Assembly: GCA_051294905.1 (NCBI GenBank)
Contig: CM119371.1
Span: 20,276,001 to 20,340,000 of the forward strand
DNA: 64,000 nt
From: Botryllus schlosseri
Lineage: Eukaryota
Reading direction: 5' to 3'
The notes under the pieces were generated by a model. It worked only from the letters and a program-made list of their open reading frames with translations. It had not been told where the DNA came from and did no database searches. The position numbers and the translations under genes were made by a program. Each line of letters starts with the position of its first letter. Position 1 is the first letter of the stretch. Positions 58,694 to 64,000 of this stretch are shown here, in pieces.

Positions 58694-59583
58694 TATATTA
58701 AAACGACGAAGGAAGACCAGTCAGTTCGAACTAACTACCACTAACACCACTGGAATCGACGATCACAGGTTTCAGTAAATTAAGTTCCGCATCGCCATGA
58801 AACAGTTGATGGAACTGCACTAAACATACATGATGCATCGTTGACGCACCGATCGACGCTCCTTGGAGTTGACTAAATGACTAGTGAGACTGACTTCCAA
58901 TTTTGAAGCTGATACATGATATCTGGAATTTGGAGTCTGAGACAGAACAGCAGCAGAAACTTGATTGCGGTGCTGTTTTTTCTTATCACATCAAAGTCAT
59001 TTCTCAATCAAACCAAACATTACATGACGAATATTCAGATGAGTTCTGGATGACTGACCACGTCAATCAATATTGGAGGAAGCGTAGTTGATGCGAGCAG
59101 AGGAAAGCAGTAGGTTGCAGTTAGTGTGGCTGTTCAGAAATTCGGAATGTTTTGTTTTTACAGGGTAAGATCAGCTTACCTTAGTGATTTATGTATTGTT
59201 GAAATCTTTAAAGCGGGCTTAGATGCTGGTATGCCTCTGAGCGGATCTTACTAGCGAAATGTCATTAAATCATTGTAACACATTGGGAGCTTGTGCACGA
59301 TCTGCCCTAAGTCAACGGTATTTCGGTCCCGGCGCTCAGGCAAAATCCGCCGTTTCATAAACGGAAAATTATTAATGGGCACACTGCTTTTTACCGGGTG
59401 GAAATTACAATAACCTGTCTGCTTTTGAAGCTGAATGGGAAATGAAGGTGTTAATATTGAATGATAGTAATTCTATAAAATCAAACGAGTGGATTTATAT
59501 AGATTGTTACGAATTAGTGATTTGAATACTTATAAATATCGATGTATGATATGATTTGCAGGCGAACTGTAACGTATCCGATA

Positions 59584-59616
59584 TATAAAAGGAAGTTGTA
59601 TGAGTCGATATAAAAG
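59584..59616 (+). promoter_or_regulatory. Two TATA-box-like TATAAAAG motifs upstream of the Merlin transposase
   Basis: TATAAAAG at 59584 and 59609, about 100-130 nt before the ATG at 59712; function not shown. Confidence 0.3.
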
Positions 59617-59711
59617 GCGGGCATCGCAGTCATTATAATCAGATGATCATCGATCGCGAATCGTGAATCAATAGCTGACAGAAAAGCGGTTATTGCGGAA
59701 CGAGGAAAATT

Positions 59712-60641
59712 ATGAATATACAGCAATTGGCAGTGACGGGCGTTATTACTAACCTGGACTGTTGCATACAATTTATGAGAGATCATGGAGTGTTGGCGAA
59801 ATCAATGGATTGCTCTCTGTGCGGGATTACGATGAAACAGGAGGTCACCGGTGCGGTAAAGGACGGCTATCGATTTCGATGCATTAATGCAGCCTGTCGC
59901 ACTACTTCAAGCATAAGAAAAGGATCCTTCTTTTCAAAAAGTAATCTGGGATTAAAAGAGTTATTGCTCGTAACTTATTTTTGGACGACTGAAGCACCAC
60001 AGCATAGAATTGTGTCGGAAAGTGGGGTTTGCGCCAGATCGGTAATAGATTGGTGTAATTTCTTGAGAGAAATATGCTCCGAAGCACTTATGCGGGACAC
60101 AAGTCAGTTGGGTGGAGACTCAATCGTGGAAGTGGATGAAACGCTGATTTCAAGGAGACGCAGAGGTACTAATGCTTCTGGACGTTCGGTTGCTTCTGCT
60201 CAAGTCTGGCTTTTGGGAGGCATTGATAGATCCTCCAAGAAGGTATTCCTTGAAATTATACCCCCAGAATTAGGACGAACGGCTCCGGTTCTTGAAAGTT
60301 TAATTGTGAAACATGTAAAACCAGGGACAACGATCCATACTGACTGTTTTGCCTCTTATCGAAATTTAGAGCGATTGGGGCAAGGTTATCGTCATCGTAC
60401 GATAAATCACAGCTACTCCTATGTATCTCCGGAAGACCGAACATTGCATACCCAGGGGATCGAGAGCATGTGGTCCAGCTTGAAAAAGGCAATCAAACGT
60501 GGACATGGTATCCAACGAGATTTATTGGCTTCTTATTTGGATTTCTGGGTTTGGGCTCGTGAGCACCCCAGACAACGAAGATTCCTGGATTTCCTGCAAG
60601 CAATAGCTTCCAATCCGAAGTATGACGTATCAAATCTGTAG
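59712..60641 (+). CDS. Merlin/ISXO2-like (IS1595 family) DDE transposase, 309 aa, intact
   Basis: N-terminal Zn ribbon (CSLC...FRC...C), SIRKGSFF, catalytic motifs IVEVDET, WLLGGIDR, PGTTIHTDCFASY, HRTINHS, HTQGIESMW, then SYLD. Confidence 0.93.
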   Translation: MNIQQLAVTGVITNLDCCIQFMRDHGVLAKSMDCSLCGITMKQEVTGAVKDGYRFRCINAACRTTSSIRKGSFFSKSNLGLKELLLVTYFWTTEAPQHRIVSESGVCARSVIDWCNFLREICSEALMRDTSQLGGDSIVEVDETLISRRRRGTNASGRSVASAQVWLLGGIDRSSKKVFLEIIPPELGRTAPVLESLIVKHVKPGTTIHTDCFASYRNLERLGQGYRHRTINHSYSYVSPEDRTLHTQGIESMWSSLKKAIKRGHGIQRDLLASYLDFWVWAREHPRQRRFLDFLQAIASNPKYDVSNL

Positions 60642-60938
60642 GGAGTAGGAATTACTTGCATCCGATAGTTACAACGACCGGACAAAAGATAAAACAAATT
60701 ATAGGCTAGTGTAAAAAAAAAAAACGGCCCAAGAGGTTAAAGCGGTGTGATCAAATTAGTAGTGGTAAATATTTTTAGTAGAATAGGGTAGCCGGTTGGA
60801 TAAGTACTATTATCAACGGGTATATTGATTTTGTCTTTTGCAGAAAAAGGATAATTTAGGATTTCAGTTAAGGAAGCGAATGATCTTGTCTGCTGATCCA
60901 CCAATTTCCGGACCGTGGTGTACGTATTTAATATTGAT

Positions 60939-63293
60939 ATGTACAATTGGGGCTTCGCTATATCATATTGTATTGTGCTGTTGGCCTTGGAAGTCACACT
61001 TGGCCACGGTGGAGCACCTTTAAGGGATCACATTCATGGCGACCGTTCGAGAACTATTACAGATGCCAGATTTGGAAGATTAACAAGCTCAATGCCCGAG
61101 GGATGGCAGAAACTACCGAACACACGATGGGAATCGTATAATTTAAGTCACGTCTGGCAAGAAACAGGAGATGACCAGCATCGTTTTGAGAATCCTGGGA
61201 TGTTTTATTCGTCCACTTTCGGGTATGTGATAGCCGAGAAGATAAGCTACAGACAATATGCCTTTCCGCAAGGTCATTTTTGGACGGATAGCAATGAATT
61301 TGAGCGGACTTGCTTATGTGAACGTAGAATAGGGTACATTGTGCCTGGTCTTCAGTATCAGGCCCTGAAAAAGACCGTAACGTACACCCGCGAAACAGGA
61401 TCTTATCTCAGATTGCATTGGAATTGGAATATGACGGACTCTGATGTCCGGCAGTTCAATCCGGGAAATAGGTTTATAGAAGCTATGACCAAATATAAAT
61501 TGGTGCTATTAAGATTGTTCGATAATTATGCCAGTATTCGTGCATCTTGTCACGTGCAAGAAGAAAACAACAAGACCCAAGCCGATTTATACAACGTATT
61601 CAATCATTCTAAGAATGAAATTGCACATTGCTAACCAAAAAATCATGGGCATGAATGTGTCTTGTGCAGTATGGTTGGATTGGTATATGCTTTCGAACCG
61701 GCAAAACCCGACTTATTGATTATGGAAGTGGATTTCTCCAAAGGGCTCGGATATTGGGAAGGCGATACTATACCTAAGCGAAAATCGTGGTGGGATATTG
61801 GTCAAGAGCGTCGCCCGGTTGCTAATTTATGGCCAAGAGAAACTAATCAGGCATGGTGGGTAGTGCTACCAGAGCGTGTTAAATGGTTGCTTCCCCTTTA
61901 CGCATATGATAAAGTTCAAGATTTGAGAGACGGTCTTCCACGCAGGACACAGGGGTGTCTTCCGTTATATTCTGAATTTCCATCCATGACCAGAACTGAT
62001 GAAGAATGTAAAGCCCGTGTGCTGGCAAATGCCGAGCGTTGTCGTGACCCTGTCGGTGGATTAGAAATTAAATTAGCGCATTTTGATCACATTCATTACG
62101 ATACGGAAAATGGAGCTTTGAGATTTCCTGGGCCACCGCTGATGATCAAGGGTCACGGTAGGAGTGAAATGCGTGGCATACAGTCTTCCAAACGTACTAA
62201 ATCTCGAAAGAAAAGGTTCTTGTTTTTTGCATTAATAATGGTTTTTTCGTCAATTTTTACATTAACTGCCGCATCAACATTACAGAGTGAGTTTAATGCT
62301 AGGACGAAAGATCTTACTGACCAGTTGAACACTAGGTTTACATTGTTAGAGAGTGATCTTAAGGAAGTGGCCGACAAAGTTAACCAACTCGCAGCGGTAA
62401 CGGTGTCCCAGGGTCAAAATCTAAATCAAGTAATCATAGGAATGTTAGAACATGAGCGAACGCGCGACGCCCAACTTGAGGCCATTATTGCCCAAGTTCA
62501 TGAAAACAAGAATATGATAATAGCTCAAGCAGACTTGTATTTTTCTACTATTCAAACTGTGCACTCTATGACGATCGCAGAAGTGGCTGTAAATGATTTG
62601 ATTATTTCAAAGTTACAAAATAGCACGGGAAAAGCTATTTTTGATTCAACCAAAGCTTATTTAGTGCGAATTAAAAATGGACTAATACATTTGAAAGAGC
62701 ATGGCCAATTGATAACCGCGTATCAGTTGGATTATCGGAATTTTTCTAATCATCAAGGTCAAATTTTAAAGGCGGCGCGTGAAAAATTGAATGACACCAT
62801 GGCAGAGACTGAATATAGGGTTAAGGTTTACCAACAAGGGGTGAATAGCACCTTAGTTTTGAACACTACCGAGTTTAGCCACGATAACATAACCTTCATT
62901 TCCTTGAACGGCTCGATAGGAAAAGAACTATTCCAAGATATAGGATATGGCATAAAAACTGTAGCTGAGGGCACCGGCCATGTGATTAGTGAAATTTTGC
63001 AAGATACGGGAACTCTAATTAAGACAGGTGTCGATGGAGTTGGAGATATGATTGGTACCGGGCTAGGATCTATTTTTGGGGGATTAGGAAAATTTCTAAT
63101 TCCGATTGGCATAGTATTGGGTGCATTAATAATAATTTATTGTCTGATAAAATTCTCCCCAGGTTGTAAAAGTCGAAAAACTACGATAGCTGAAAGGAAT
63201 AATCATACTGAAATGGCTACTTTTGTCACAACCGTTGTACCACGCCGAAATATCGTTAAAAAAGTAGTGCGGCGATCTGAGTATAATGTATAA
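60939..63293 (+). CDS. Virus-like class I membrane-fusion (envelope) glycoprotein, about 784 codons, interrupted by one in-frame TAA (61632-61634)
   Basis: ORFs 60915-61634 and 61662-63293 share one frame. Signal peptide MYNWGFAISYCIVLLALEVTLG; Cys/Trp-rich N-terminal subunit; KSRKKR|FLFFALIMVFSSIF (furin site 62205-62216, then hydrophobic peptide); heptad helix; N-glycosylation sequons; Gly-rich membrane-proximal region; TM FLIPIGIVLGALIIIYCLI; short tail. Confidence 0.8.
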
Positions 63294-63371
63294 ATTTTGT
63301 GCGATCTTACTTATAGTTGCAAATATTTAGAAATAGACTTAACCTATACATATTGTATTGAGGATATCATT

Positions 63372-64000
63372 ATGAAGCCAAGTGTCTGTCTTAATTTCGG
63401 GATGTGTTTCGTAACATGTGCCCTGTTCGCGCGGGGTGAAAAAGATAATTGGACATTGGCTGACTTGAAGATTCAACCAATCACGAGGCTGAATTACGAC
63501 CTATGGATAAATACTACGACGCGGTTGTCGGAACGAATAGCTCTGCAAGATTTGTTCCAATTGCCGAAGCTTGAGGGATCCTTGAATTCAACAAAATGGG
63601 AATCAAGACGATATGGTATGATTTCATCGAAAAATCGTACAATTAGCGAAAATCTCCAACCCCGTGGTAAATACTGGACCGATCCTGTAGCGTTAGAGCA
63701 ACAATGTCTGTGTGTTCGATCATTGGCTTTGGTTAGGCCGAGTTTGCAATACAGTAATCTATTCAAAAATGTCACCTATCATAGGAAACCACAATCCGAT
63801 TTAAGACATATGTTAGTTTGGGCGGAAACACCTGATTCATTAAGGCGGAATAATAATTTAAATGTATATAATGGCGTTATGACAATTTATAAATTTCTGC
63901 TCATTAAGTTACTACAGCGGCATTTGGTTGTTCAGGCCTCTTGTGAAAACACTGATGAGAATGATTTGGCTGGATCCACAGATTTCCCGATGAATATATT
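63372..64000 (+). CDS. Second, paralogous glycoprotein gene (partial; open to the window end, not in the ORF track)
   Basis: 209 open codons starting MKPSVCLNFGMCFVTCALFARG (signal-like); PRGKYWTD...CLCVR...PSLQY..LFKNVTY...QASC aligns without gaps to the upstream glycoprotein (37 of 95 identical by manual count). Confidence 0.8.
   Translation, partial: MKPSVCLNFGMCFVTCALFARGEKDNWTLADLKIQPITRLNYDLWINTTTRLSERIALQDLFQLPKLEGSLNSTKWESRRYGMISSKNRTISENLQPRGKYWTDPVALEQQCLCVRSLALVRPSLQYSNLFKNVTYHRKPQSDLRHMLVWAETPDSLRRNNNLNVYNGVMTIYKFLLIKLLQRHLVVQASCENTDENDLAGSTDFPMNI

Follow-up and report, generated by a model that had tools for sequence, protein, structure and literature searches.

Here, I describe a mobile unit of 17,780 bp, the left third of which occupies the right end of the window, that is, the 64,000-nucleotide stretch C1:20276001-20340000 of the 495-Mb eukaryotic assembly of Botryllus schlosseri. 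The unit is probably an env-bearing retrovirus-like element that integrates by means of a DDE transposase of the Merlin/IS1595 type, retroviral replication and transposon integration modules being combined in one element. Its structure can be asserted with high confidence, and the life cycle proposed for it is placed somewhere between an even chance and probable. The unit is bounded, multi-copy and recently mobile, its parts are all co-inherited and the genes tested are under selection; across deeply diverged subfamilies, the transposase, env, gag and pol stay linked. An earlier note on this DNA had marked, from 59317 onwards, a transposase gene followed by two glycoprotein genes, and had taken this block for the left end of a larger element. 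Extension of the contig bears out the latter: the unit runs from 59286 to 77065 in continued window numbering, and its right end (C1:20353065) lies 13 kb beyond the window.

The boundaries were established by comparison between copies and by an empty site. Homology of the copies on C13 and C15 with the C1 copy begins at 59285/59286, so that both this homology and the empty site move the start of the element from 59317 to 59286. A second sequence (L041, C1:21108481-21114499), located 770 kb away on the same chromosome and 99% identical to the flanks of the element, fuses 58713-59285 directly with 77066-81015, the two having 8 bases in common; it contains a single copy of the 8-mer and is therefore an empty-site paralogue of the filled C1 site, where the 8-mer ACACATTG stands on either side of the element. 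The closing inverted terminus and the target-site duplication (TSD) of 8-9 bp that the earlier note had proposed to look for were both found, the duplication being 8 bp long. The two termini are imperfect 15-nt repeats matching at 12 of 15 positions in inverted orientation; the probability of at least 12 matches by chance is approximately 1e-5 (binomial arithmetic), because the ends had been fixed independently via the empty site. The features that delimit the insertion are as follows.

59278..59285, strand not applicable: left TSD copy, 8 bp, ACACATTG (from the filled site and the empty-site paralogue)
59286..59300, + strand: left terminal inverted repeat (TIR), GGAGCTTGTGCACGA (homology between copies starts exactly there)
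59286..64000, + strand: stretch of the 17,780-bp element inside the window
59286..59711, + strand: left end, non-coding, 426 nt upstream of the transposase gene
after pol to 77065 (C1:20353065): right end, 440 nt
77051-77065: right terminus, the reverse complement of which is GGGGCTGATGCACGA (from the empty-site junction)
77066-77073 (C1:20353066-20353073), strand not applicable: right TSD copy, ACACATTG (from the filled and empty sites)

Perfect 8-bp TSDs flank three of three full copies and all differ, namely ACACATTG on C1, GGCTTGAG on C15 and GAAAATAT on C13. Taken together, the empty site, the termini and the differing TSDs therefore define the unit as 59286-77065, inserted as a block at three different sites. 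The whole unit inserts with 8-bp target duplications in the manner of Merlin/IS1595, and the accessible part of PMC10045372 states that Merlin and IS1016/IS1595 elements generate TSDs of 8 bp. The same co-oriented gene series is found again on C13 and C15, and C16 holds only fragments of it. In a DNA sequencing run, word depth is about 20-70 within the block vs 500-1100 in the left flank, and contigs assembled from the run likewise carry the element at low and the flank at high depth. As a side observation, the element has landed in a sequence of which a 99% identical second copy exists, and its left flank belongs to a repeat that is present in many copies and is transcribed.

Eight genes or open reading frames (ORFs) are encoded in the 17.8-kb unit: the transposase, two glycoproteins, three accessory ORFs, gag and pol.

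59712..60641, + strand: IS1595/Merlin-type DDE transposase, 309 aa (Pfam, NCBIfam, catalytic triad)
60939..63293, + strand: envelope-like glycoprotein 1, 784 codons (signal peptide, sequons, polybasic site, anchor)
63372-65513 (63372..64000 in the window), + strand: glycoprotein 2, 713 aa (with a membrane anchor of its own)
66170-66880, 67025-67951 and 68864-69463, + strand: three paralogous accessory ORFs, between glycoprotein 2 and gag
70999-73413, + strand: gag, 804 codons, with a CCHC knuckle (position, motif, frameshift site)
73317-76625, + strand: pol, 1102 codons, in the -1 frame and overlapping gag (protease, reverse transcriptase and RNase H, hereafter PR-RT-RNase H, with a Tpt1-like tail)

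At the right end of the window, the ORF listing (standard code) contains three co-oriented ORFs on the + strand with spacers of exactly 297 nt (transposase to glycoprotein 1) and 78 nt (glycoprotein 1 to glycoprotein 2), as the earlier note had described. The frames are real, and in the window copy glycoprotein 1 is split by one in-frame stop codon at 61632-61634. The note had further stated that gag, RT, integrase and long terminal repeats (LTRs) were all missing nearby, which holds for integrase and LTRs throughout the unit but not for gag and RT, whose genes begin 7 kb past the window end.

The transposase matches Pfam DDE_Tnp_IS1595 (PF12762) at 2e-16 and the NCBIfam IS1595 family NF033547 with 89 bits, the cut-off being 75. 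In an alignment of the window protein with its subfamily-B counterpart (41% identity) and the single database match (25%), the catalytic triad of D142, D211 and E251 does not vary and K258 is also kept, as are the four cysteines of an N-terminal zinc ribbon (CxxC...C....C). A word search returned that one match only, of about 25% identity, and the language-model neighbours of the protein are eukaryotic ISXO2-like transposase clusters. A separate group of transposases of about 36% identity, with open frames of 311-338 aa and no glycoprotein match listed nearby, was also observed (e.g. C10:694480-695262, C4:6104440-6105231 and C7:23328014-23328787); these lie outside the set used for the linkage counts below and may be ordinary Merlin-type transposons of the same genome, possibly the source lineage.

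Pol matches RVT_1 (2e-18) and RT_RNaseH_2 (5e-18) in Pfam and contains the motifs DTG (aspartic protease), YIDD and TDAS, the CCHC motif being located in gag. The gag-pol overlap carries an in-phase A AAA AAC heptamer in subfamily A, to which the window element belongs, and in subfamily B alike. Only five close relatives of Pol, of 35-42% identity, occur among 5.8 billion clustered proteins; all five are devoid of the rve integrase domain (PF00665) and two of them carry the Tpt1-like domain. Beyond these relatives there is a gap from E 1e-128 to 1e-28, after which follow Ty3/gypsy pols with rve at about 25% identity. Of the proteins of known structure, the best matches are a chain that was deposited under the name 'Enzymatic polyprotein' (8r0s), foamy-virus PR-RT and Ty3 RT; the first name is that of caulimovirus P5. 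At its C-terminus (aa 937-1091, 76125-76590), where retroelements usually carry integrase, Pol resembles the RNA 2'-phosphotransferase Tpt1/KptA (Pfam PF01885, 3e-7; NCBIfam, 5e-10; Tpt1 chains in the PDB, 1e-4). As for Gag, its language-model neighbours (0.88-0.92) carry zf-CCHC, Retrotrans_gag or PNMA, and the protein has no Pfam match. Two of the three accessory ORFs match PWP3A-B_C, the C-terminal domain of the PWWP3A/B DNA-repair factors (7e-9 and 5e-6), and the third has the same C-terminal motif. No family in Pfam, PHROGs or NCBIfam was found for the glycoproteins, gag and one accessory ORF.

What the unit lacks is equally characteristic. When its stop-to-stop ORFs of 70 aa or more on either strand, 47 in number, were compared with Pfam, none matched the rve integrase at E <= 0.05 and none a tyrosine recombinase, the IS1595 transposase being the sole recombinase. 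Self-comparison detected no direct repeats within 59286-77066 (blastn word 11, E 1e-5; blastn-short word 10, E 0.05) and no internal inverted repeats; the unit therefore has neither LTRs nor internal repeats of the DIRS type. Likewise, no DNA polymerase, terminase, packaging ATPase or DNA-virus capsid gene is present among the 47 ORFs of the bounded unit. These findings bear on the two identities that the earlier note had considered. A plain Merlin transposon with fusogen cargo does not fit a unit in which a retrovirus-type gag and a pol encoding PR-RT-RNase H are joined by a -1 frameshift site. The other identity, a Teratorn-like endogenous DNA virus that has an envelope and uses the transposase as its integrase, was suggested by the linkage of the transposase to envelope genes and by a unit larger than any Merlin; the capsid, polymerase and packaging genes expected to the right turned out to be a retrovirus-type gag and an RT pol, with no genes of DNA viruses, and with RT as the only polymerase in a bounded 17.8-kb unit this identity is scarcely credible. 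For subfamily A it is excluded by the defined ends, and the relatives of about 38 kb described below could hold other genes.

The genome was searched with glycoprotein 1, the transposase and Pol, and the coordinates of the matches were combined. The sets used comprised 63 main glycoprotein matches of 80 (17 fragmentary or weak ones were dropped), 89 of 130 transposase matches (E <= 2e-55) and 42 of 80 Pol matches with RT-RNase H, the other 38 being protease fragments of the same loci; because only the best candidates were scored, all counts from these searches are lower bounds. A co-oriented transposase is located at most 4.5 kb upstream of the glycoprotein in 60 of the 63 loci, in agreement with the earlier proposal that transposase and glycoproteins belong to one mobile unit, and 39 of the 42 pol loci have a co-oriented transposase and/or glycoprotein within 60 kb. 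In seven loci a transposase match stands between pol and the glycoprotein, pol being at most 9 kb upstream of the latter. The linked loci span subfamilies, in which identity to the window element is 38-48% for the transposase, 31-38% for the glycoprotein and 53-57% for Pol. The arrangement that the earlier note had named as fatal to its own proposal, in which Merlin copies would stop shortly past the transposase, the glycoproteins being part of an LTR element of their own, was examined and is not what these loci display.

The ratio of non-synonymous to synonymous substitution rates (dN/dS) between the C1 copy and the C13/C15 pair is 0.08-0.10 for the transposase, 0.13 for glycoprotein 1, 0.28 for glycoprotein 2, 0.12-0.32 for the accessory ORFs and 0.16-0.19 for the 5' part of gag. 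The divergence between C1 and the C13/C15 pair has therefore accumulated under selection on all genes tested. Between C13 and C15, dS is only 0.002-0.008, so that at least one of these two insertions is young and transposition is recent. Linkage and selection bear in particular on a chance composite, in which a Merlin transposon, or its ends, would flank a decayed LTR-less retroelement and env as passive cargo or nested insertions. DNA transposons can indeed trap foreign DNA between their ends, and the stop codon in glycoprotein 1 of the window copy would fit decay; yet the recurrence of the same genes across subfamilies, the dN/dS of 0.08-0.32 for each gene tested, the seven loci with the transposase between pol and the glycoprotein, the in-frame neighbours in the subfamily-B locus (see below) and the failure to find LTR remnants make such an origin very improbable.

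The subfamily-B locus that was read in detail (C3, 27 kb) encodes gag (956 codons), pol (1165, in the -1 frame) and a transposase (349), followed by glycoprotein 1 (869 codons) and a glycoprotein 2-like gene (1047). One stop codon is all that separates pol from the transposase, which shares its frame, and subfamily B may express a read-through Pol-transposase fusion. The right end of this copy is found 499 nt after the second glycoprotein gene, where a related terminal motif (...GTGCACTAGTTCC) adjoins an unrelated 720-bp repeat. The ORF that precedes gag in subfamily A has a homologue in the same position in subfamily B (E 1e-7), and therefore the cyclic order is equal and only the opening point differs. 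By gene content, both subfamilies have the cyclic order accessory-gag-pol-transposase-env1-env2, opened between pol and transposase in A and after env2 in B. Homology of the C3 copy with other copies extends leftward beyond the 27 kb examined, so that the permutation is drawn from one located end and the gene order. In a third subfamily (48% transposase identity), the left ends start with GG(G/A)GATCAAGTGCT, which is related to the start of the window element.

Relatives of about 38 kb were observed as well. Their layout comprises a transposase-glycoprotein pair, about 20 kb, a second transposase paralogue (of the 317 aa class), about 12.6 kb and pol, as at C4:22817652-22857127, C10:14743278-14780941 and C5:10286155-10339232. 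They may be true giants of the family, or else forms of composite or nested make-up.

The permuted gene order indicates a circular or end-joined DNA form, and the following cycle may be proposed. Gag would package the genomic RNA, from which RT would make double-stranded DNA; the transposase, taking the place of integrase, would insert this DNA by cutting with an 8-bp stagger; the inserted DNA would most likely be a circle or another form in which both termini are brought together; and the envelope proteins would allow spread between cells or hosts. The leading guess as to how full-length ends might be regenerated without LTRs is a more-than-unit-length transcript made off a circular template, in the way of pararetroviruses.

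The same features can be turned towards a giant Merlin-type DNA transposon, the 17.8-kb unit of which would be copied and moved as DNA only. The transposase would excise and insert it, and the retroviral module would form particles or have some other function, for instance transfer between cells, with RT taking no part in copying the element. Inverted termini and 8-bp TSDs suffice for DNA transposition, no LTR, terminal redundancy or other signal of reverse transcription was found, and no transcripts were seen in the RNA-seq runs. Nevertheless, conservation across subfamilies at 53-57% Pol identity extends to gag, the frameshift site and the PR-RT-RNase H motifs, purifying selection on gag is hard to explain for a module without a role in propagation, the circularly permuted order between subfamilies points to a circular replicative form, and simple cut-and-paste alone leaves dozens of copies unexplained. 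Movement as DNA only, the main rival, is regarded as unlikely, and an env-bearing retrovirus-like element with transposase-mediated integration remains the preferred reading.

Several points weigh against this preferred reading. Each step of the replication cycle is inferred from sequence; circularity is read from the permuted gene order alone, and the right end of subfamily B is recognised by a motif and a break in homology. No terminal redundancy, primer-binding site or other cis signal of reverse transcription was identified in the unit, no search having been aimed at the primer-binding site. Over 59286-68000, zero reads were obtained from three bulk RNA-seq runs bearing the same species label (about 6% of each was read), the flanking repeat being covered by reads in the same runs, and the sequencing runs listed as containing the sequence include no RNA run. 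Gag is assigned by its position, its CCHC motif and the frameshift site, along with language-model neighbours that are weak (0.88-0.92), and the envelope is assigned from sequence layout, the full-length model of glycoprotein 1 being poor (pLDDT, a per-residue model confidence, of 50). Finally, the C16 copy is fragmentary, and the stop codon at 61632-61634 interrupts glycoprotein 1 of the window copy, where the C13 copy is open.

Glycoprotein 1 has a signal peptide and bears 12 N-glycosylation sequons; its C-terminal membrane anchor is followed by a short tail. A polybasic site RKKR (aa 423-426) precedes a hydrophobic peptide, conservation of R423 and R426 being at least 90% across 18 members of the family, and two very long helices are predicted at 425-543 and 571-636, together with a hydrophobic helix at 717-738, all with low confidence. 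This predicted layout is that of a class I fusion protein. Searches for solved or modelled relatives gave little: the best profile match in the PDB was a coronavirus spike HR1 peptide at E 0.14, with nothing significant; the fold search, for which the query was the poor full-length model, returned generic coiled-coil rows alone (Z <= 6.8); and the best match in BFVD, at E 0.023, was insignificant. The N-terminal domain is modelled with confidence (pLDDT 77), and no clear relative of it was seen among solved structures (Foldseek best E 0.16; VIA best Z 4.4). For aa 95-420 (61221-62198), a weak scatter of SGNH and carbohydrate esterases and of corona- and torovirus haemagglutinin-esterases was seen at Z 2.8-3.3; these model-based matches are too weak to call and may serve only as a lead, towards a possible haemagglutinin-esterase-fusion-like ancestry.

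Glycoprotein 2 has only the N-terminal domain in common with glycoprotein 1 (29% identity over 309 aa, E 3e-31). The description of the pair as tandem fusion glycoproteins, made at first sight of the window, is hence apt for the layout of glycoprotein 1 and does not extend to glycoprotein 2. The glycoprotein family is rare: a word search gave one match, and a profile search 61 representatives among 1.84 billion proteins. No meaningful Pfam family was found in the 14 of these 61 that were checked, nor in the glycoproteins of the element itself.

Comparison with known systems places the element between several of them. With Merlin and IS1016-IS1595 it shares a transposase domain scoring over thresholds, the D-D-E triad, the zinc ribbon, short TIRs and the 8-bp TSD. 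Merlin elements are a few kb long and normally encode a transposase only, whereas the present unit has 17.8 kb and eight genes, including gag, PR-RT-RNase H and env. To the env-bearing Ty3/gypsy elements (errantivirus-like; Metaviridae) and the retroviruses it is linked by the CCHC Gag, the -1 frameshift into PR-RT-RNase H, the location of env downstream of pol in the cyclic order, and an RT-RNase H nearest to Ty3/gypsy, foamy virus and the 'Enzymatic polyprotein' chain. It differs from them in having no rve and no LTRs, and in its inverted termini, the Tpt1-like C-terminus of Pol, an env without any Pfam family, and a TSD of 8 bp, those of Ty3/gypsy elements and retroviruses being 4-6 bp long. 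In the accessible part of a survey of metazoan env-carrying retrotransposons (PMC13524379), the words transposase, Merlin and DDE are absent.

A further comparison concerns elements in which the recombinase has been exchanged. The DIRS, Ngaro and VIPER elements are RT elements with a swapped recombinase and without classical LTRs, and they are thought to use a circular DNA intermediate; DIRS-like elements are further marked by repeats that are either inverted or split direct, by an internal complementary region and by the lack of a TSD. The window element resembles DIRS in being an RT element with its integrase exchanged for another recombinase and in having no classical LTRs, and is unlike it in its DDE transposase, its TSDs and its env, and in that neither split repeats nor an internal complementary region were found by the self-comparison. 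Pararetroviruses (Caulimoviridae and Hepadnaviridae) likewise have RT-RNase H without integrase, and the relationship would be one of analogy only. Their genome is a DNA circle, from which a terminally redundant pregenomic RNA is transcribed; a similar circle in the window element would explain both the absence of LTRs and the permuted order. Pararetroviruses are not known to have a dedicated integration enzyme or to form insertions with TIRs and TSDs, and caulimoviruses are not known to have an envelope.

Teratorn is described in the accessible part of PMC10175614 as a piggyBac transposon joined to an alloherpesvirus, a DNA virus mobilised by a DDE transposase in the host genome. The same source, as far as accessible, presents it as the sole fusion of a transposon and a DNA virus then known and contains no occurrence of Merlin or IS1595. 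As in Teratorn, a virus-like genome would here be moved by a cut-and-paste DDE transposase and multiply within the host genome; unlike in Teratorn, the transposase belongs to a different superfamily and the virus type is a reverse-transcribing element of 17.8 kb rather than a DNA virus of 180 kb. In the literature searched, most subscription journals being outside its scope, no description was found of an element with RT, gag and env that contains an IS1595/Merlin transposase.

Mobile elements are divided into class I, which copies through RNA, and class II, which moves as DNA by means of a transposase. The recognised orders of class I listed in the accessible part of PMC5718144 are LTR, DIRS, PLE, LINE and SINE. 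The element fails the defining features of the LTR order, of DIRS and of Merlin, and yet has modules of each; it fails each class I order that can be tested as well as the Merlin superfamily, though it is coherent, selected and recently mobile. An even chance is given to the broader possibility that it represents a previously unrecognised order of eukaryotic reverse-transcribing elements or viruses, enveloped and retrovirus-like, in which integrase and LTRs have been lost, the genome is a circular, pararetrovirus-like DNA and entry into chromosomes is by a Merlin/IS1595 transposase acting on its short inverted termini, with diversification in this genome into forms of 18 to about 38 kb, for which the term 'integrating pararetrovirus' might be used; such an order would form a bridge between class I and class II mobile elements.

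If the life cycle proposed above is true, the integration module of retrovirus-like elements would be exchangeable for a DDE transposase unrelated to it, which would add a second precedent to that of DIRS and its tyrosine recombinase. The element would then be a natural parallel to Teratorn among reverse-transcribing elements and a test case for the regeneration of ends without LTRs. In any event, it supplies an unannotated family of envelope-like glycoproteins and an unusual Pol with a Tpt1-like domain.

Two observations concern occurrence elsewhere and the surroundings of the element. Sequencing runs filed under two other organism codes contain 27% and 7% of the sampled words of 59286-64000, and near-identical pieces of the element may thus be present in other species or strains. 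Right after the right flank, at 81016-90079 (C1:20357016-20366079), begins another element, whose inverted ends measure about 1.5 kb and inside which lies a satellite of about 200-bp period (82.6-88 kb); many pairs of such inverted ends, spaced 13-17 kb apart, are found genome-wide.

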